From an uncultured Desulfobacterales bacterium (GTDB lineage Bacteria > Desulfobacterota > Desulfobacteria > Desulfobacterales > CAZRLQ01): 28,267 nt of DNA. Where the stretch lies: positions 1-28,267 of the forward strand of contig CAZRLQ010000001.1 of assembly GCA_964600725.1 (NCBI GenBank). Reading direction: 5' to 3'. A program made the position numbers and the translations under genes. Shown one piece after another: positions 12,913 through 28,267 of this stretch. The notes under the pieces were generated by a model, which saw nothing but the letters and a program-made list of their open reading frames with translations, was not told where the DNA came from and ran no database searches. Numbering within the stretch: the stretch's first letter is position 1; each line of letters begins with the position of its first letter.

Positions 12913-15909
12913 TCAAGAATCTTTTCTGCAGGGATATTTCCATGCATCTTTCAGCTCCTGAACAGGAACAGAAAAAATGGTTCTGTTTTCAGTTCCGATA
13001 ATAACCAGATCAGAATTTTCCGTAACAGTTCCAATGCATTTGCAGGCATTCTCTTTAAAAATATTTTCAAATTTATCTCTGTTTTTTGGGTCGATTGTGA
13101 CGATAAAGCGCCCGGCTGATTCTGAAAATAGAATATGGTCATTGCGGTCCGTACCTTCCCCTGGAACCAGACCAAGATCGACTTTCATCCCAAGGCCGCC
13201 GCCCATGGCAACCATTGCAAGGTGGACTCCCAGGCCTCCGCGATAAATGCCGTGAGCTGAAGCTACAATCTCCTGTTCAATGGCCAGGCAGAGAGCTTTA
13301 TATAAGGATTTAAACCTGTCAGGAAATACCTTTGGAACATTAAGACCGACATATCCAAAATGTTCGTAATATTCAGATCCGCCTAACTCATTTCTGGTGG
13401 TGCCGAGGATATAAACCAGATCACCCTGTATTTTGCTGTCCATCGTAACCGCTTTTTTTATATCTTTTACGACAGATATAGTGGAAAACTGAATGGTGCA
13501 GGGAGCTGAAACCTTATGGGTTTCGCCGTATTGTCCTGAAAGATGACCATCAACATACATGCTGTCCTTTCCGGAAAGAAGCGGTATTTCATACGCCATA
13601 CAGATATCCTTTAATGCCAGACATGAACGTACAAGCTGTGCTGCCTTATATTTACCGTCTGGATTATCTCTTCTGTCATATTGAATATTCGGCCAGCAGA
13701 AATTGTCTATACCCCCTATATGGTAAAGATCAGCTCCAACGGCAATAACTCTGCGAACAGCCTCATCAATGGTACAACCGGTCATATGGTAGGTATCTAT
13801 TTCCGAATAAGCGGGCAGCAGTGACTGGGCAAAGGCAAGCCCCCTTTCCGACCCAAGTACGGGCATTATCACTGCAGCATCGCTGTTAACGTCATGTTCT
13901 GCGCCCAGAAGGGGTTTAATTACGCTTGTGCCCTGAACTTCATGGTCAAACTGCCTGGTTATCCATTCTTTGGAGCATATGTTTGGCCGTGATAAGAGAT
14001 CTTTTAATAAGCCTTCATAATCAATCGGCTCTTTTAATACCGGTTCAAACAACCCCCGCTTATCCGGAGGCATCCATAAGGCGTCAAATTCCCACTGGGG
14101 GAAACCGGAAGTCAGAAAATCCATATCAATATAAGCACAGCTTCTGCCGTTGTATTTTATGTGAAGCCTGCCCGAATCCGTATATCTGCCGATAATTGTG
14201 CTTTCAACAGCGTGCCTGTTTGATAGCTCAAGAAAACGGTCTATATTTTCAGGCTTGACAGCCACCGTCATGCGTTCCTGTGATTCGGAAATCCATATCT
14301 CCCACTGGTCAAGACCGGTATATTTTAAAGGAACCTTTTCAAGATCGATTTCACATCCATTGGAAAAGCGTGCGGATTCACCGATCGATGATGAAAGTCC
14401 TCCACCTCCGTTATCTGTAATAAATGCTATCAGTCCTTCATCACGTGCTTCCAGGAGAAAATCATGCATCTTTTTCTGTGTGTATGGATCACCTATTTGA
14501 ACATGGCCAGCCGGTGTGTACTCGGAAAAAATCTCTGACGAGGCTGTCACACCATGAATTCCGTCTTTGCCGACCCTGCCGCCGCACATGACAGCCAGAT
14601 CTCCAGGAGATGTTGTTTTTTTCTCTGCTGGTTTTCCACCTACATCAGAAGGCATCATTCCGACAGCCGTAACAAAAACCAGACATTTGCCCATGTAATC
14701 ATGATGAAAAAGAACCTGGCCGAATGTTGTGGGAATTCCACTCTTGTTGCCCCCGTCTCTTATTCCTTCAATTAAACCGTCCAGAAGACGCCTCGGATGA
14801 AGATGCGGCTTAAGATTTCCGGAATAATCCCGCATTCCTACACAAAACCCATAACCTCCCATCACAAGTTTCGATCCTTTTCCAGTACCCATTGGATCAC
14901 GATAGACCCCGACAATGCCGGTAATAGCACCGCCGTAAGCTTCGATATTGGATGGCGAATTATGTGTTTCACCAGTAATGACATAATAATGATCCTGATC
15001 AAAACGCCCAACACCTGCATTATCCCACAGTACCGAAACAACCCACGTCTTTTTCTCTTTTAAAGCCAATGTAGGCGTCTCAATGCAGGTTTTAAAAAGA
15101 TTGTCCAAAACCGTCTTCTGACCCGATGAGGGATCAGAGTAACGAAACAACCCGCGGAAAGTATTATGATTACAATGATCGCTTCTGGCCTGGGAAATAT
15201 ATTCAAGTTCAATATCGGTCGGATCTGAAAGACCAAAAGAAGCGCGGGCCGACTTTACTTCTTTATTTACGAAATAAGCCCTGATAATAGGGATATCGTT
15301 TGGATTAAGGGCCAGGTTACGTTCGATACTGATCTTTTGAAGAGATTCATCACTATCCACAGGGATTCTGATTGCAGCCGGCTTATGATTGAGTTTAACT
15401 TTTGGAATTATAAAACCGATTCCTGCATCACTATTCCACTTGTCCCTTGAAAAAATTTTCCACTGCTGGATTATACTGTTTGCTAAAAGTTCACCGGCAA
15501 TTTTATCCATATTTTCATATGTAAGGCCGGCGCCTGTTATACAGAAACGTTTAGATGTATAGACCGCCTCATCCCTGGCGAGCTTTATGCCCAGAACATC
15601 TTCAATTGCTTCAGCAGCCGTACTGCCTGGATTATCTCTTACACCGGGCCTGAAACCGACCCATATGATCCAGTCAAAATCTACGGAAAGAGGTTTAAAA
15701 GAAGAGACCTGTGTTACAGGATTTGTAAATATTTCGGTTTGAATAGTTTTAAGCTGATTGGCAGACAGATCCGCATCAATGGTTACGACGTCTATAATGC
15801 GAACCTGTTTAAGTCTCAAGCCAAAATAATTATTGCTTTTTTGACGAATTCCTTCACCTCTGGCATCAGGAAGAGATGGTTTTAACATTATTTCAAGCCG
15901 AGAAGGCAT
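12913..15909 (-). CDS. purL: Phosphoribosylformylglycinamidine synthase: PurL with fused N-terminal PurS-like repeats and no glutaminase domain
   Basis: 998 aa with SDHCNHNTF, ETHNSPS, GGRVGKDGIHG, DNGGGGLSS, SESQERM, QFDHEVQG and GKDSM motifs. The N-terminus has LKPSLPDARG and FRPGVRDNPG. Confidence 0.9.
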   Translation of the reverse strand: MPSRLEIMLKPSLPDARGEGIRQKSNNYFGLRLKQVRIIDVVTIDADLSANQLKTIQTEIFTNPVTQVSSFKPLSVDFDWIIWVGFRPGVRDNPGSTAAEAIEDVLGIKLARDEAVYTSKRFCITGAGLTYENMDKIAGELLANSIIQQWKIFSRDKWNSDAGIGFIIPKVKLNHKPAAIRIPVDSDESLQKISIERNLALNPNDIPIIRAYFVNKEVKSARASFGLSDPTDIELEYISQARSDHCNHNTFRGLFRYSDPSSGQKTVLDNLFKTCIETPTLALKEKKTWVVSVLWDNAGVGRFDQDHYYVITGETHNSPSNIEAYGGAITGIVGVYRDPMGTGKGSKLVMGGYGFCVGMRDYSGNLKPHLHPRRLLDGLIEGIRDGGNKSGIPTTFGQVLFHHDYMGKCLVFVTAVGMMPSDVGGKPAEKKTTSPGDLAVMCGGRVGKDGIHGVTASSEIFSEYTPAGHVQIGDPYTQKKMHDFLLEARDEGLIAFITDNGGGGLSSSIGESARFSNGCEIDLEKVPLKYTGLDQWEIWISESQERMTVAVKPENIDRFLELSNRHAVESTIIGRYTDSGRLHIKYNGRSCAYIDMDFLTSGFPQWEFDALWMPPDKRGLFEPVLKEPIDYEGLLKDLLSRPNICSKEWITRQFDHEVQGTSVIKPLLGAEHDVNSDAAVIMPVLGSERGLAFAQSLLPAYSEIDTYHMTGCTIDEAVRRVIAVGADLYHIGGIDNFCWPNIQYDRRDNPDGKYKAAQLVRSCLALKDICMAYEIPLLSGKDSMYVDGHLSGQYGETHKVSAPCTIQFSTISVVKDIKKAVTMDSKIQGDLVYILGTTRNELGGSEYYEHFGYVGLNVPKVFPDRFKSLYKALCLAIEQEIVASAHGIYRGGLGVHLAMVAMGGGLGMKVDLGLVPGEGTDRNDHILFSESAGRFIVTIDPKNRDKFENIFKENACKCIGTVTENSDLVIIGTENRTIFSVPVQELKDAWKYPCRKDS

Positions 15910-15939
15910 AATAATTTATAATCCTTGCCTTGGAGCAGC

Positions 15940-16039
15940 GTAATTTCTCAAAAATTAGGATAATGATAGGAAAATCCCCCCAGTCCCCCTTTTTCAAAGG
16001 GGAAAGCACATAATGTGCCTGAACTTTTTGAGAAGTTGC
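15940..16039. mobile_element. 100-bp MITE, copy A (GTAA-type termini)
   Basis: TIRs gtaatttctcaaaaa / tttttgagaagttgc match at 13/15. Flanks ggagcagc / ggaacagc match at 7/8. A 25-bp core is identical to copy B. Confidence 0.85.
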
Positions 16040-16054
16040 GGAACAGCCGCGCAG

Positions 16055-16083
16055 ATCAAAAATTTTTGTATTTTTTGGGCATT
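16055..16083 (+). repeat. 29-bp repeat, inverted partner of 17241-17269
   Basis: atcaaaaatttttgtattttttgggcatt matches the reverse complement of 17241-17269 at 27/29. Confidence 0.9.
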
Positions 16084-16095
16084 TTATGGTTGGCG

Positions 16096-16117
16096 AAGTT
16101 ATTTCGTCCCCATTTCT
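16096..16117 (+). repeat. 22-bp repeat, direct partner of 17392-17413
   Basis: aagttatttcgtccccatttct vs aagttatttcgtccccgtttct, 21/22 identical. Confidence 0.9.
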
Positions 16118-17193
16118 TAGTTTGATTGATTGAAAAACAGACGGGTAATATCATTATAAAATACGACTATCATAAGCAATATCAGTAAAAATATTCCAGC
16201 CTGCTGGGCTATCTCACGCACCTTTGTATTAATAGGTCGTCTTGTCACGGCCTCTATGAAAAAGAAGAGTATATGACCGCCGTCTAAAACCGGTATGGGG
16301 AGAATATTTAAAATAGCGAGATTAATGCTGAGCAGAGCAATAAAAAACGCCAGATTGGCTGCCCCCTCTCTGGCCTGTTGCCCCGCAAGCTCTGCAATCA
16401 TAATCGGCCCGCCAAGTGTTTTCGTAGAAATAGTGCCCTGTATAATCTTTACAATACTTACAACAGTCAGTTTGGTGATGCTGTATGTCTGGATAATGCT
16501 TTCTGAAAATGCCTGAACCGGATTCAGCTCCTTTATGAAATAATCACCCGATGCCTTAATTCCTATAAGACTTCGTTTTTTATCCTCCCCGAAAATATCT
16601 TTTACTATTTGCATCCTTGGTTTAATTTTTATTTCAAGGAGAGACTCTCCACGAACCACAGAAAATGCAATATTTCTTTCTTTACTTGAGGAAATAATTT
16701 CAGACATCTCATTCCAGCTTACAATCTCAATGCCGTCAATTGCCGCAATAGTATCATCTTTTTTAAGCCCCGCGATTTGAGCCGGGCTTCCTTTTTCAAC
16801 CTCTCCAATAACCGGTTTCAATATAAAAACACCTGAAAACTGAAAAAAAAGATAAAATATAATCAGAGCAAGGATAAGGTTGAAAAAAGGACCGGCTGCA
16901 ACGATCAAAATTCGTTGAAATACATTCTTGTGTGTAAAAGAAATCGGTATATCCGCAGGATCGATTTCCGCATCCGGTTCTTCACCAACCATTTTGACAA
17001 ACCCGCCAAGTGGTACTGCTGAAATACAATAATCTGTAATTCCTATCTTTTTACCGAAAAGCCTGGGACCGAATCCAAGTGAGAATTTAAGGACCCCGAC
17101 ACCTAACATTCTGGCAGTCAGAAAATGCCCCAGTTCATGGAAAAAGATAAGTACGCCCAAAACAATAACAAATGCAAAAATATTAGTCGTCAT
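16117..17193 (-). CDS. rseP: RIP metalloprotease RseP (M50 family, one PDZ domain)
   Basis: 358 aa with HELGH, GGFVKM, AAGPFFN, PDZ (SPAQIAGLKKDD) and NILPIPVLDGG. Confidence 0.96.
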   Translation of the reverse strand: MTTNIFAFVIVLGVLIFFHELGHFLTARMLGVGVLKFSLGFGPRLFGKKIGITDYCISAVPLGGFVKMVGEEPDAEIDPADIPISFTHKNVFQRILIVAAGPFFNLILALIIFYLFFQFSGVFILKPVIGEVEKGSPAQIAGLKKDDTIAAIDGIEIVSWNEMSEIISSSKERNIAFSVVRGESLLEIKIKPRMQIVKDIFGEDKKRSLIGIKASGDYFIKELNPVQAFSESIIQTYSITKLTVVSIVKIIQGTISTKTLGGPIMIAELAGQQAREGAANLAFFIALLSINLAILNILPIPVLDGGHILFFFIEAVTRRPINTKVREIAQQAGIFLLILLMIVVFYNDITRLFFNQSN

Positions 17194-17240
17194 AATAAAA
17201 CTTTGTTCGGCCTTTATGCTTAAGTTTCGCTATTTTTTTT

Positions 17241-17269
17241 AATGTCCAAAAAATACAAAAAATTTTGAT
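17241..17269 (-). repeat. 29-bp repeat, inverted partner of 16055-16083
   Basis: aatgtccaaaaaatacaaaaaattttgat; its reverse complement matches 16055-16083 at 27/29. Confidence 0.9.
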
Positions 17270-17273
17270 GCTC

Positions 17274-17343
17274 GTAGAGGCAACTCCCTGTGGCTGCCCA
17301 GCATTGTGCAATCAATCGGACAGGCACAAGGGCCTGCCCCTGC
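17274..17343. repeat. GTAG-type REP inverted doublet (REPIN-like)
   Basis: gtagaggcaactccctgtggctgccc (17274-17299) and the reverse complement of 17318-17343 (gcaggggcaggcccttgtgcctgtcc) are diverged copies of one G(T/C)AG-led palindromic unit. Confidence 0.75.
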
Positions 17344-17391
17344 TATTTTGTGCCAATATACATCACAGCTTCAGGTGATGCATACTTGGTT

Positions 17392-17413
17392 AAGTTATTT
17401 CGTCCCCGTTTCT
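17392..17413 (+). repeat. 22-bp repeat, direct partner of 16096-16117
   Basis: 21/22 identity to 16096-16117. Confidence 0.9.
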
Positions 17414-17628
17414 GGGTATAGTCTAATGGAATTGAGCGCCAGCGAAATTCAAGTCACGGTTCATGCCGCGCTTATCCGGTCATGATCGGTACCGCTGCTA
17501 AAAACGTGGTACGTCAAGATCATCATTCTTAGTTCAAGCAGCACAGAACGCTATTTAGTCTATCCAGTCCGACGCATCTGCCTGAATTTTTTCCGATGGA
17601 TAACACAGCCGATTAAATAACCGGCATA

Positions 17629-18789
17629 CTATCCTGCTAAACCGATCAACCGGATGGCTGTCTTTCTTGCCCAGTTATCTATTTTCAGAATATCATACAA
17701 GTTTGGGTTTTCAACGACCAAATGCCTATCCATTATGTTTTTGATAACCTCCGGTATGCTGATAAATGAGATACGATTCTTTAAAAATGCACCGACAGCT
17801 ATTTCATTTGCGGCATTCAAAACCGCAGGAAGCGTTCCCCCGGCTTTACAGGCTCGCATTGCAAGGGCAAGACAGGGAAACCTTTCTAAATCTGGTTTTT
17901 CAAATGACAATGTCCCTATTTCTGTAAAGTCCGGCATCTGCTGCTTTAAAGGAAGACGTTCAGGATATGCCAACGAATATGCTATGGCTGCTTTCATATC
18001 GGGAATTCCAAGTTGCGCGATAACAGATCCATCTTTATAACGAACCATTGAATGAACCACGCTTTGTGGATGGATGACGACTTCTATCATATCCAGGGAA
18101 ACATCGAACAGATATTTTGCTTCTATTACCTCAAGTCCTTTGTTCATCATTGTTGCCGAATCTATACTTATTTTTCTGCCCATCTTCCATGTGGGATGAT
18201 TCAAAGCCTCTTCAGGTTTTATATCGGCAAATTCTTCCCTGGACTTTTGTCGAAAAGGACCACCGGATGCCGTAAGGAGTATTTTATCCAGGTCATCTTT
18301 GCGGTGGCCTGCAAGACATTGAAAAATCGCACTATGTTCACTGTCAATGGGAAGTATTTTTACTCCTTTTTCAGAGGCTTTTTGCATGACAATTTCACCG
18401 GCCATCACAAGTGTCTCCTTGTTCGCCAGGGCGATACTTTTGCCTGCCTCTATTGCAGCCAGCGTCGGCATCAAACCTGCAGCGCCGACCACAGCAACGA
18501 CCACCATATTTACCAAAGCATGTATGGCAGCAGTTCGATACCCCTTTTCTCCATACAGTATTTTTACATAATCCTTTCCGGAAATGATTTTTTTCAAGGC
18601 TAATGCTCGCCCTTCGTCAAAAACAACGGCAATTTCCGGATGAAACCGGTTAATCTGATTGGCCAACAGCTCAATATTGTCTGCTGCCGCAAGAATTTTA
18701 ACAGCAAACCTGTCAGGAAACATTTCTGCTATTTTAAGTACATTGCGACCGATGGACCCTGTTGACCCAAGTATGGAAAGATGTTTCAT
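17629..18789 (-). CDS. dxr: 1-deoxy-D-xylulose 5-phosphate reductoisomerase
   Basis: 386 aa with LGSTGSIG, LANKE, PIDSEH, LTASGGPF, KISIDSATMMNKGLE and NAANE. Confidence 0.97.
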   Translation of the reverse strand: MKHLSILGSTGSIGRNVLKIAEMFPDRFAVKILAAADNIELLANQINRFHPEIAVVFDEGRALALKKIISGKDYVKILYGEKGYRTAAIHALVNMVVVAVVGAAGLMPTLAAIEAGKSIALANKETLVMAGEIVMQKASEKGVKILPIDSEHSAIFQCLAGHRKDDLDKILLTASGGPFRQKSREEFADIKPEEALNHPTWKMGRKISIDSATMMNKGLEVIEAKYLFDVSLDMIEVVIHPQSVVHSMVRYKDGSVIAQLGIPDMKAAIAYSLAYPERLPLKQQMPDFTEIGTLSFEKPDLERFPCLALAMRACKAGGTLPAVLNAANEIAVGAFLKNRISFISIPEVIKNIMDRHLVVENPNLYDILKIDNWARKTAIRLIGLAG

Positions 18790-18832
18790 GCTAAGTTTGA
18801 TATGGCCTGATATTTCTTTACCCGTAAGATTT

Positions 18833-18920
18833 GTAACTTCTCAAAAAATTCGGGCAGCGATGGAAAAATCCCCCTTTTTCAAAGGGGAAAGCAGACAGAT
18901 ATCCGAACTTATTAAGTTAC
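18833..18920. mobile_element. 88-bp MITE, copy B (GTAAC...GTTAC) with a perfect 8-bp target-site duplication
   Basis: Ends are gtaactt / aagttac. taagattt is present at both 18825-18832 and 18921-18928. The core tccccctttttcaaaggggaaagca (18869-18893) is identical to 15984-16008. Confidence 0.9.
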
Positions 18921-18930
18921 TAAGATTTTA

Positions 18931-18963
18931 GCAAAAATTGGAGTTGCAGCCGTTTGACAACTC
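18931..18963 (-). terminator. Possible weak intrinsic terminator after cdsA
   Basis: Minus strand reads GAGTTG(T)CA-aacggc-TGCAACTC followed by caaTTTTT. Confidence 0.3.
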
Positions 18964-18980
18964 TGCGATCAAAAAAACAA

Positions 18981-19796
18981 TCACGGCCCGAGTATATATT
19001 CCTTGAAAAAATACGCCAAGGGTGCTGCAAAGAGCAGAGCATCTATACGATCCAGGATTCCGCCGTGCCCGGGCAATATTCCTCCAGAATCCTTTACCTT
19101 TGCTGTCCGTTTAAGTTCGGATTCAAACAGATCACCAGCCTGCCCTGCGACCCCTATTAAAACAAAAAAGAGCAGGCTCTCCAGCCAGGGAAGTGAAGGC
19201 AGAAAAAAAAACTTGAACAATGAGCCTGTCAAAAGATTTGCCGCTAAACCTCCAATAGACCCTTCAACGGTTTTTCCGGGGCTTACAGCCGGGCAGAGCT
19301 TATGACGTCCCAAAGAGATGCCTGTATAATATGCTCCAACATCACCTGCAAAAACAATACATAACAAGAAAAATATCCAGTCAACTCCGCTTTCGACATT
19401 CCTTATCATGACCAGACAGGAAAGAAAAAGAGGGATATATAAAATGCCTATTATCTGTTTTATTACGATTTCCAATACAAAAGGATCATGCTTGTACTGA
19501 AAAACAGAGATAAAAGCAGAAATAATAAAGTTAAATATTAAAATGCCTAAAACAACTTCATAATAATTGCTGTACACAGCCCAAACAATAAAGCTTCCGG
19601 TAAAAAACCCGAAAAAGGGTATGATTTTTAGTTTAACTGGCATTTTGTGATCAAACTGTATCCGGAAATATTCCCATAAAGCAATTATAGCGACGACACT
19701 GATAAATACGGCAAACAGGAAGGAACCCCCTTTGTATAGAAGCAAAACAAGAAAAGGAAGAGCGACAATAGATGTGATCCATCGTTTTAAATGCAT
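18981..19796 (-). CDS. cdsA: Phosphatidate cytidylyltransferase
   Basis: 271-aa membrane protein with DVGAYYTG, SPGKTVEG, GDLFESELKR..KVKDSG..LPGHGGILDRID. Confidence 0.96.
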   Translation of the reverse strand: MHLKRWITSIVALPFLVLLLYKGGSFLFAVFISVVAIIALWEYFRIQFDHKMPVKLKIIPFFGFFTGSFIVWAVYSNYYEVVLGILIFNFIISAFISVFQYKHDPFVLEIVIKQIIGILYIPLFLSCLVMIRNVESGVDWIFFLLCIVFAGDVGAYYTGISLGRHKLCPAVSPGKTVEGSIGGLAANLLTGSLFKFFFLPSLPWLESLLFFVLIGVAGQAGDLFESELKRTAKVKDSGGILPGHGGILDRIDALLFAAPLAYFFKEYILGP

Positions 19797-19926: not shown

Positions 19927-20670
19927 CTAAACTTTACCGAATCGACGTTCCCTGTTTTGATACTCTTTTATAATACTGATAAATTCATCTTCGCCAAAAT
20001 CCGGCCATAGAGTATCCGTTATAAAAATTTCCGAATATGCTATCTGCCACAAAAGAAAATTGCTGATCCGCATCTCTCCGCTGGTTCGTATTAACAGATC
20101 CGGATCGGGCATCCCCCTGGTGTACAGATGTTCAGATACAAGCTCGGCTGTTATTGAATCATAATTTATTATTCCTTCTTTGGCTTTTATTGCAATATCT
20201 CGAACCATTTTAACAATTTCCGCCCGCCCCCCATAGCTTAATGCAAGGTTTAAGAGCATGCCATCATTACTTTTTGTCAGATCTTTTGTCTCTTTAACTG
20301 ATATTTTAACATCTTCCGGCAGTTTTTCTATCTGCCCAATGACATTGAAGCGGATATTTTTATTCATAAGTTCATAGATTTCTGATCTGAGAAATTTTTT
20401 AAGGAGAGCCATAAGGGCGGTGATTTCATGTTTAGGACGCTGCCAGTTCTCAGTAGAAAAAGCAAAAAGCGTAAGTATGGGAATTCCGATTTCACGGCAG
20501 TTTCGTACAACAGTGCGGACTGCTTCGGCTCCCTTTTCATGACCTTTAATACGGCTTAAAAAACGTTTTTTCGCCCACCTGCCATTTCCATCCATAATAA
20601 TGGCAATATGAACGGGGAGCAGCGAAGTATCGATATCTGTGCGCCTTATAGAAAAGTCACTAAAATTCAA
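19927..20670 (-). CDS. uppS: Undecaprenyl diphosphate synthase
   Basis: HIAIIMDGNGRWA, FSTENWQRP, LSYGGRAEI and PDLLIRTSGEMRISNFLLWQ. The TTG start overlaps the frr end, so the start is uncertain. Confidence 0.96.
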   Translation of the reverse strand: MNFSDFSIRRTDIDTSLLPVHIAIIMDGNGRWAKKRFLSRIKGHEKGAEAVRTVVRNCREIGIPILTLFAFSTENWQRPKHEITALMALLKKFLRSEIYELMNKNIRFNVIGQIEKLPEDVKISVKETKDLTKSNDGMLLNLALSYGGRAEIVKMVRDIAIKAKEGIINYDSITAELVSEHLYTRGMPDPDLLIRTSGEMRISNFLLWQIAYSEIFITDTLWPDFGEDEFISIIKEYQNRERRFGKV

Positions 20671-21236: not shown

Positions 21237-21522
21237 CCTGAATTAAGCGCTTAACCTTTAGCGGCTAACTATTAGTGGTTCATCACGGATTAGTGTGGTA
21301 ATCCATAATGAACAGCTAATCGCTAATACCTGATGGCATAAGTTCAATTAGTGTATGTTTGATAAATAGAATCTCCGCAATAATCCGCTATGATCCCTAT
21401 TAGTTTAATGATTACAAGATGTTTTGCCATTACAAATTCTCACCCGTTGGGTGTTGTTTCTATTTAACGTAATATCTTGATTTTTCAAAGCTAAACGCTA
21501 ATGGCTGATCGCTTAATTCAGG
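21237..21522. mobile_element. 286-bp MITE-like insertion (CCTGAATTAAGCG termini, 5-bp TSD) in the pyrH stop codon
   Basis: Perfect 13-bp TIRs at 21237-21249 and 21510-21522, continuing about 14/21 inward. aatta is duplicated at 21232-21236 and 21523-21527. There is an internal three-segment hairpin at 21271-21320. Confidence 0.85.
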
Positions 21523-23734: not shown

Positions 23735-23829
23735 TTTTTCCTCCCAATCGGTTTTTTCCACCGCCTCCTTCAACCCTGCTTCCAGCTTTCAATGAAAAGC
23801 ACCAGGAAACAGGTCAAAAGACGTGTGAG
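23735..23829 (-). ncRNA. rpsB 5' leader (S2-binding autoregulatory RNA)
   Basis: Minus strand CACACGTC-TTTTGACC-TGTTTCC-TGGTGC-[CTTT..AAAG]-CT-GGAAGCA-GGGTTGAAG-GAGGCG...AAACC folds into a long stem. It carries the ACAC, GGTGC and GGAGGC elements of known rpsB leaders. Confidence 0.7.
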
Positions 23830-23840
23830 ATAATATAATT

Positions 23841-23858
23841 CTGAATTAAGCGATCAGC
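23841..23858 (+). repeat. Solo terminus of the pyrH-frr element
   Basis: ctgaattaagcgatcagc is the exact reverse complement of 21504-21521 (18/18). Confidence 0.85.
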
Positions 23859-23967
23859 TGTCAGCCTCTTCCCTGATCTTGCAGAAAACTTCTCATTCTA
23901 AGACAGAATCCTTAGTATAAAAACCGTTTTTTGTATCAAATTAAATAGATGCCCGCAACTATTTTTT

Positions 23968-27747: not shown

Positions 27748-27892
27748 AGTGCCCATCCGTAAATGACTATTTTGCCCGATATCTGCGCTGCGCTGAAATT
27801 TTAATCCTCAAAATACGGGGGTTGTATTCCTTCGGTTAAAATTTTAGCGCGCCTTGATCGTCAGTAAATTAGCCTATTTATGGACGGACACT
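27748..27892. mobile_element. 145-bp long-hairpin MITE-like repeat (same core family as 7048-7187)
   Basis: TIRs agtgcccatccgtaaat / atttatggacggacact match at 14/17. Core blocks gcccga..tctg, taatcct, cct.cggtta and gccttgatc are shared with the reverse complement of 7048-7187. Confidence 0.75.
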
Positions 27893-27902
27893 GCTTAGCG
27901 CT

Positions 27903-27957
27903 ATCCTAAAAATACGGCAATGTATTTCTGCAGTTAAAACTTTATTCTGCATTGACC
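27903..27957 (+). repeat. Degenerate tandem half-copy of the hairpin-element core
   Basis: atcctaaaaatacggcaatgtatttctgcagttaaaactttattctgcattgacc aligns with 27804-27859 (atcctcaaaatacgggggttgtattccttcggttaaaattttagcgcgccttgatc). Confidence 0.7.
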
Positions 27958-28267
27958 TTTCAAAAAAATTTCTCGTTTCGGTCAACATTAATGAAAGCTT
28001 TTATAATTCTGGTTAGATTTGTTCGACCCGGAACCGTAAAACCAAAAAGATAGTCAAGCTGTTTCGAGGATTTTGTCTGTTTAAAGCAAAAACAGAAGGA
28101 TCAGTAAAAATGATATGGTCAGGAGTCAGCAATGGAAATTATTGCTTTTTCCCCAAGCCTTTTAAATCTTTCAGGGAGGGTTCCCTGCGTTGTAAAATAT
28201 ACTAAATATACAACCTAAATCCTGCAAGCGCCGGGTTTGCCGAAGACCTGCCCGCGGCAGGCAGGTG

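Follow-up and report, generated by a model that had tools for sequence, protein, structure and literature searches.

Some members of the Correia/NEMIS, ERIC/IRU, RUP and Nezha families of MITEs (miniature inverted-repeat transposable elements) have terminator or promoter activity, and REP sequences are specific to a lineage and associated with a RAYT gene. Canonical insertion sequences of the IS66 family are usually 2.4-2.7 kb long (ISfinder and 'Everyman's guide' tables). Within this family, ISDge4 of Deinococcus geothermalis belongs to the ISBst12 group; its end reads GTAACTGCTCAGCA, its repeat of 8 bp is CCTCGATG, it contains a single open reading frame (ORF), and its transposition has been observed (PMC12898284). 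Here we describe two short elements, copies A and B, in 28,267 nucleotides of DNA from an uncultured Desulfobacterales bacterium (positions 1 to 28,267 of contig CAZRLQ010000001.1), referred to below as the window. Copies A and B are very probably MITEs of the IS66 type, in which the ends define the transposing unit and a hairpin module is the cargo. A literature search for IS66 together with MITE returned no description of an IS66-derived MITE. Two candidate precedents, MITEPsy2 and a Cardinium MITE, were rejected, the first being related to Tn3 and the second unrelated.

Copy A is a non-coding element of 100 bp (15940-16039, plus strand) in the 207-nt gap between the start of the purS-purL fusion (15909) and the stop of rseP (16117). 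It is flanked by the octamers ggagcagc (15932-15939) and ggaacagc (16040-16047), which are identical at 7/8 positions. The left terminal inverted repeat, GTAATTTCTCAAAAATTAGGAT (15940-15961, plus strand), could be aligned with the ends of the insertion sequences described below, and the right one, GCAACTTCTCAAAAAGTTCAGG when reverse-complemented (16018-16039, minus strand), fits the pattern of our metagenome scan. These ends, GTAATTTCTCAAAAA on the left and GCAACTTCTCAAAAA on the reverse-complemented right, match at 13/15 terminal positions. Copy B (88 bp, 18833-18920, plus strand) lies in the 191-nt gap between the start of dxr (18789) and the stop of cdsA (18981), and its two flanks, taagattt at 18825-18832 and 18921-18928, are identical at 8/8 positions. 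Its left terminal inverted repeat, GTAACTTCTCAAAAAATTCGGG (18833-18854, plus strand), fits the 22-nt degenerate pattern that located the insertion-sequence ends. The right one (18902-18920, minus strand) is of the AATAA type and reads, when reverse-complemented, GTAACTT and then AATAAGTTCGG, with a deletion of 3 nt between them relative to the family; the two ends of copy B thus correspond over 7 + 8 nt. At the G+C content of 42%, a flank match of 8/8 has a chance of about 2e-5 and one of 7/8 or better of about 5e-4.

Both copies begin with GTAA and finish with TTAC (TTGC in copy A). The motif GTAAYTTCTCAAAAA is common to three of the four ends; 0.33 occurrences would be expected in the window, where three were counted, a number not attained in any shuffle. 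A core of 25 nt, TCCCCCTTTTTCAAAGGGGAAAGCA, is identical in copy A (15984-16008) and copy B (18869-18893), with two matches in the sequence and none in 100 shuffles, and outside this core the copies are only loosely similar. For instance, copy A has two C-runs (tcccccc-ag-tccccc) and copy B has one. In copy A the cargo module AAATCCCCCCAGTCCCCCTTTTTCAAAGGGGAAAG extends over 15972-16006 on the plus strand, with a hairpin stem at 15986-15992 and 15996-16002, and the whole copy folds as a long hairpin (z = -4.3). This form of the module, with two units, also occurs in genomes of many phyla. No ORF of at least 80 aa lies wholly inside either copy. In its GTAA ends, its 8-bp duplications and its identical core, the sequence therefore reads as an earlier, preliminary description of this DNA had stated.

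Metagenome contigs were scanned with a degenerate 22-nt pattern built from the window ends (GYAAYTTCTCAAAAARTTCRGG). The same end was found on at least 120 contigs, with many different interiors behind it; all counts given for this family hold among the matches listed. Pairing of left and right ends yielded 48 complete elements, whose 8-nt flanks matched at 8/8 positions in 15 cases, at 7/8 in seven and at 6/8 in three. Control 8-mers displaced outward by 8 nt in the same elements never exceeded 5/8, and no perfect duplication reached a ninth base. In this wider family, duplications of 8 bp are the rule. The perfect duplications were rich in A+T (75%, compared to 54% in their loci). Short elements with the same ends ranged from 49 to about 400 bp and contained assorted GC-rich palindromes. 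In the contigs L041-L160 the cargos behind these ends were unrelated to each other, including the palindromes GGATTCCCGC…GCGGGAATGAC and TCATTGCGAG…GAAGCAATCTC and subfamilies of 145, 222 and 285 bp. The presence of many unrelated cargos behind the same ends indicates that the family is modular.

In one group of the end-bearing contigs, an ORF begins about 80 nt inside the end. In seven elements of 1685-1808 bp, the only convincing gene is an ORF of 524-533 aa; the remaining ORFs (86-97 aa) are antisense or overlapping, and neither tnpA nor tnpB was found in these elements. Two of the full-length elements (L082 and L059) are bordered by perfect 8-bp duplications. The ORF matched the Pfam model PF03050 (DDE_Tnp_IS66) with 67.5 and 61.7 bits, the gathering score being 23.1. 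Among six transposases, of which two come from cultured bacteria, the identity to the first (L082) is 48-70%, and all share the invariant motifs VDDTGARH, SDDAGQF and NNLSExDIR, which are consistent with a DDE triad.

The cultured relatives, at 47-51% identity, were retrieved by a protein search of plasmid records and share the end GTAACTTCTCAATAA. The element on plasmid pAt1 of Allochromatium tepidum (L161, 390-2130) measures 1741 bp, has the ends GTAACTTCTCAATAAGT and is flanked on both sides by cgattttt, and that on a plasmid of Caballeronia sp. SBC1 (L162, 119-2145) measures 2027 bp, has the ends GTAACTTCTCAATAAC and is flanked on both sides by catcagct. Both are annotated merely as 'transposase' with no family-level name, and the parent clade seems divergent enough to escape the family naming of NCBI. 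The family ends, including those of these two elements, share GTAACTTCTCAA. When the four window ends were aligned with eight insertion-sequence ends, a consensus of GTAACTTCTCAAAAAGTTCGGGCA was obtained, in which 15 of the first 16 positions are invariant or nearly so.

Judged from these sequences, the parent of the window elements belongs to the IS66 family and is built like members of the ISBst12 group, with a single ORF. The single ORF and the length of about 1.35-1.9 kb that define this group were found in the elements of 1685-1808 bp, the Caballeronia relative being longer at 2027 bp; the assignment to the group is by architecture. The preliminary description had read copies A and B as non-autonomous elements of the IS66 type that are mobilised in trans, and this reading is supported by the same 22-nt ends on PF03050-matching elements of 1.7-1.8 kb, by their 8-bp duplications and by the cultured relatives. 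Of the properties by which MITEs are recognised, the following were found: the copies are short (under about 500 bp) and non-coding, have terminal inverted repeats and a duplication of fixed length, are dispersed and have their ends in common with an autonomous element.

Ends with CTCTT...CAAAAA motifs and 8-bp duplications also occur in the families ISL3, IS1595 and IS256, which could speak for mobilisation by one of these instead of IS66. However, every full-length element found with the exact ends described here encodes a PF03050-matching protein alone, the ends begin with GTAA and not with GG, and the ORF of the parent matched no other transposase family. On the identity of this ORF we reject the three families as the parent, and we give their involvement almost no credence.

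We propose that a DDE transposase would recognise ends of about 22 nt (GTAACTTCTCAA(A/T)AAGTTCGGG) and that the element would have inserted into an AT-rich target of 8 bp, which repair would then duplicate. The interior would not be derived from the parent and would consist of a cargo hairpin module (AAATCCCCC-N3-4-CCCCCTTTTTCAAAGGGG) that also appears to circulate in other frames and phyla. In this genome, each copy would have landed in one intergenic gap of the row cdsA-dxr-rseP-purL with its hairpin in sense orientation, and copy B would thereby put a terminator-like hairpin with a U-run between cdsA and dxr.

The occurrence of the parent next to the MITEs was checked with the full-length element L054 as reference, in runs consisting of metagenomes or of assemblies that are far from complete. 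Of the four runs with the window locus, three contain the parent element itself, run X1 with 25 contigs at an identity of at least 99%. In run X8 the sole match to L054 was a MITE-like contig, and some contigs fuse both ends directly, which is likewise a MITE-like form. We infer that mobilisation within the window genome would have been in trans. Per run with the window organism, between 13 and 64 contigs matched when compared with copy A. Their loose ends read as further copies of the same subfamily elsewhere (...GGGCAACGATGAGAAAATC-core-GGTGCCCGAACTTATTGAGAAGTTAC), dozens of them with the same layout and different flanks.

These additional copies also bear on the idea that copies A and B never moved in their short form and are what internal deletion has left, in place, of full-length insertion sequences. 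Internal deletion is a classical route to a MITE. However, the interior of the copies bears no relation to the subterminal parts of the parent, cargo and layout are shared by the two loci, and the dozens of further copies occur in the same runs. We regard decay in place as most improbable.

We next consider the state of the two sites in strains and relatives of the window organism. A search for proteins exactly matching the dxr product of the window gave no result, and strain contigs were retrieved through a dxr variant (P0001) that is 99% identical to the dxr of the window. Four contigs with a 99%-identical dxr match the region of 3.3 kb at 99.5-99.7%, and both elements are present in them with zero changes. 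Copies A and B are fixed in the population. The preliminary description had further claimed that the two copies differ in age, which is not demonstrable: each copy is degenerate in a different way, and both are fixed and unchanged in the near-identical strains. The single-nucleotide polymorphisms (SNPs) between the strains cluster in the spacer at 17281-17608, where 11 of the 16 SNPs of contig L031 in the 3.3-kb region fall.

In relatives with a dxr protein identity of about 74%, the gene order is kept and the gaps are tighter. The cdsA-dxr gap measures -7 or 12-13 nt in the relatives compared to 191 nt in the window, the dxr-rseP gap -4, 94 or 196 nt compared to 435 nt, and the rseP-purL gap 48, 153 or 155 nt compared to 207 nt. 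The end motif is absent from all these relatives. The tight gaps and the absence of the motif fit an insertion in the lineage of the window, though they do not amount to an exact empty site.

Several observations weigh against copies A and B being mobile elements of the IS66 type. The window contains no transposase gene, and the parent element was shown only at the level of the metagenomes that it shares with the window organism. MITE and parent are alike only in their ends of about 22 nt. The match to PF03050 is confined to the second half of the model, and against the NCBIfam model NF033517 (IS66 family transposase) the ORF reached 124 bits (E = 6e-36), which is under the curated cut-off of 180. 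An empty site B would read tttctttacccgTAAGATTTtagcaaaaatt and an empty site A ccttGGAGCAGCcgcgcagatc or ccttGGAACAGCcgcgcagatc; no such allele, and no joint skipping either element, was found in the four near-identical contigs or in the contigs of eight runs. Since no polymorphism was seen, the case for mobility rests on the duplications and the copy number. Moreover, both window copies are damaged, copy A by substitutions in its ends and a duplication of 7/8, copy B by the deletion of 3 nt in its right end, and with such ends they may no longer be mobile. The search for empty sites proposed in the preliminary description thus produced no empty allele, and it was answered indirectly by the cdsA-dxr gaps of the relatives.

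The hairpin of the cargo has a stem of CCCCTTT/AAAGGGG with a loop of 3 nt, which folds in both copies. In copy B (18864-18893, minus strand; stem 18871-18877 and 18881-18887, followed by ATTTTTCC) it is terminator-like in the sense direction from cdsA to dxr. The minus strand reads TTCCCCTTTGAAAAAGGGGGA and then TTTTTCC, giving a stem of nine pairs with four G-C pairs and a run of five U, and this is the top terminator-like site on the sense strand of the 4-kb region. On the minus strand of copy A, the hairpin and the T-run are kept apart by a second G-run. No T-run follows the hairpin on the plus strand of either copy, so that the hairpin is not bidirectional. A bidirectional terminator had been postulated for both copies; the T-run that was found is confined to the minus strand and adjoins the hairpin directly only in copy B. 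An outward promoter from the end, with TTGAGA as the -35 box, was rejected: neither copy has an acceptable -10 box at 16-18 nt. Searches of Rfam returned no match at the gathering thresholds in any part of the window; for 15800-19100 all matches were at chance level (E above 1). Judged from its sequence, the hairpin of copy B may affect transcription.

It could be argued that the copies are regulatory cassettes kept by the host, in which the hairpin and the U-run serve as an intrinsic terminator or attenuator, with dxr uncoupled from cdsA and, likewise, purL from rseP, and the transposon ends would only record how the cassettes arrived. Such a role would be compatible with a MITE origin. The quality of the copy B site would suit it, and so would the same orientation of both copies to the genes and the lack of SNPs in either copy in all strains, next to a spacer in which the SNPs accumulate. 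However, the shared orientation of two copies is a coin toss, and about 190 nt free of SNPs at a divergence of 0.5% is what is expected by chance. The hairpin of copy A has no direct U-run, and no promoter-like site was detected between the hairpin of copy B and dxr. In addition, a strong terminator should be harmful here, dxr being expected to be essential if the organism depends on the methylerythritol phosphate (MEP) pathway and being tightly coupled to cdsA in the relatives. Retention by the host for regulation is therefore unlikely in our opinion, and MITEs with a hairpin as cargo remain the preferred reading.

The distribution of the cargo module was studied in a collection of species-representative genomes, with the core 22-mer CCCCCTTTTTCAAAGGGGAAAG as query. 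Contigs with the 22-mer numbered 30 and came from the genomes of at least 28 species in many phyla, compared to about 0.07 occurrences expected by chance. The hosts include Methylococcales, Burkholderiales and other Betaproteobacteria, Lysobacter, Luteimonas and Acinetobacter, as well as Desulfobacteraceae, Smithella, Omnitrophota, Poribacteria, Glassbacteria and Clostridia. Upstream of the 22-mer, 14 nt that were not part of the query are conserved in 20 of the 30 contigs as A(A)ATCCCCCT-N3-4 (AAATCCCCCTCNNT). This conservation indicates that the shared unit is a module of about 36 nt, AAATCCCCCTCNNTCCCCCTTTTTCAAAGGGGAAAG. A literature search for the core sequence found no paper containing it.

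The preliminary description had treated the core as a feature of the MITE family. This does not hold, as the module recurs in many phyla, where its frames have different ends or no such ends at all. In the genome loci L001-L030 it is often accompanied, at a distance of 20-30 nt, by an inverted partner, and it is framed by other inverted ends (GTAAGTATTCAG, GTAACTATTCA, GTAATTATTCA, TGTCCGGTTAAG and CGTATCATTCTTAAATTTCA) or by none. The genome-collection scan with the 22-mer returned no copy bearing GTAACTTCTC ends. Some MITE-like frames around the module in these loci (e.g. L005 and L007/L024) likewise begin with GTAA. The orientation of the module relative to the genes was too noisy in the 30 loci to be informative, owing to spurious long ORFs in GC-rich DNA.

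These data raise the question of whether the hairpin module is itself the mobile or selected entity, either REP/REPIN-like or self-spreading, and the IS66-type ends are just one of several frames. Its occurrence across phyla with conserved upstream nucleotides would agree with this, as would its frames, which have at least four other types of ends or none, and its frequent arrangement as an inverted doublet. So would the depth in run X1, where the core reaches about 1800, compared to 100-500 for the ends and 18.6 for the unique flanks. However, both modules of the window lie inside complete elements with ends and duplications, and the duplications abut the GTAA ends and not the module. Furthermore, the module was linked to no enzyme, although no search for RAYT was made, and many unrelated cargos stand behind the same ends, so that it is the ends that define the transposing unit. 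We consider it distinctly improbable that the module moved on its own into the two sites of the window, and prefer to regard it as cargo of IS66-type MITEs.

A broader proposal is that the ends of one IS66/ISBst12-like clade could serve as a general carrier for a few GC-rich hairpin modules, the CCCCCTTTTTCAAAGGGG module among them, which would be exchanged between MITE families and phyla. The module and not the MITE would then be the persisting unit. We put this forward as a speculation that has some chance of being right but is more probably wrong. If it were true, the module would persist either by a spreading mechanism of its own or by insulating transcription, which would make insertions tolerable.

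All genes of the row that contains the two copies are on the minus strand, in the order uppS, cdsA, copy B, dxr, rseP, copy A and purS-purL. The row is conserved and comprises uppS (19927-20670), cdsA (18981-19796, PF01148) upstream of copy B, dxr (17629-18789) downstream of it, a gene for an rseP-like M50/PDZ protease (16117-17193, PF02163) upstream of copy A, and the purS-purL fusion (12913-15909) downstream of copy A. The best-ranked named matches of dxr are from Desulfonema, Desulfococcaceae and other Desulfobacterales, at 70-75% identity. The metagenome runs with the window locus come from marine-sediment and hydrothermal-vent samples. The purL gene is fused to purS, as it is in the relatives, and the fusion has 998 aa. 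On its 3' side the window has a gene for a 125-aa protein of unknown function and one for a response regulator, and the relatives have purQ at the same place.

Other repeats were seen in the window. Another repeat family flanks rseP on both sides, and in the metagenome contigs the depth rises over 16055-16117 and 17241-17413. This family consists of a 29-nt block at 16055-16083 with an inverted copy at 17241-17269 (93%) and of a 28-nt block at 16090-16117 with a direct copy at 17386-17413 (89%). The dxr-rseP spacer of 435 nt contains, at 17270-17608, a GC-rich palindromic module (…ctgtggctgccc…ggacaggcacaagggcctgcccctgc). In the frr-pyrH gap, an element of about 286 bp (21237-21522) has inverted-repeat borders (CCTGAATTAAGCG...), with a third arm at 23829-23865, and is probably a second MITE family. 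Two related units about 98 nt apart (…aaaatacgg…tgtattYctKcRgttaaaa…) lie at 27800-27945 and 28220-28267. The window terminates in a GC-rich repeat-like motif (ccgaagacctgcccgcggcaggcaggtg) and related contigs are similar in length; the assemblies probably break at repeats near this end.

The analysis ties a MITE family to a little-studied branch of IS66 elements with a single ORF, and defines its ends, target length, preference for AT-rich sites and candidate transposase. The ends and the protein would allow the insertion sequence and its MITEs to be annotated in Desulfobacterota from sediments and in other genomes. The hairpin of copy B, which lies within a row that is tightly coupled in relatives, offers a simple test case for the tolerance of insertions, and the spread of the module across phyla is a question of wider interest.

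The family described here agrees with canonical IS66 elements in its ends of GTAA, in duplicating 8 bp and in encoding a transposase with a PF03050 DDE domain, but its full-length partners of 1.7-1.8 kb have neither tnpA nor tnpB and are well below the canonical length. The likeness to the ISBst12 group is closer, as the parent has one DDE transposase ORF and no tnpA or tnpB, a length of 1.7-2.0 kb, GTAACT.CTCA ends and 8-bp duplications. It differs from this group in that the transposase has 524-533 aa instead of 449 aa and stays under the cut-off of the NCBI IS66 model, and the window itself contains non-autonomous derivatives only. Like the Correia/NEMIS, ERIC/IRU, RUP and Nezha MITEs, copies A and B are short, non-coding, intergenic and foldable, with inverted repeats and duplications, and occur in many copies. 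They differ from them in their ends and parent family, and in that one set of ends is combined with many interchangeable cargos. The cargo module alone resembles REP/REPIN sequences, as it is a short GC-rich intergenic hairpin that often forms an inverted doublet in other genomes. Unlike these, it is near-identical across phyla and in the window occurs only inside MITEs, and its distribution, as read from the genome sequences, argues against a lineage specificity of the REP type. Copies A and B are thus ordinary miniature transposons with nothing unexpected in their mechanism, and what is unusual about them is a central hairpin that recurs in many unrelated bacteria.

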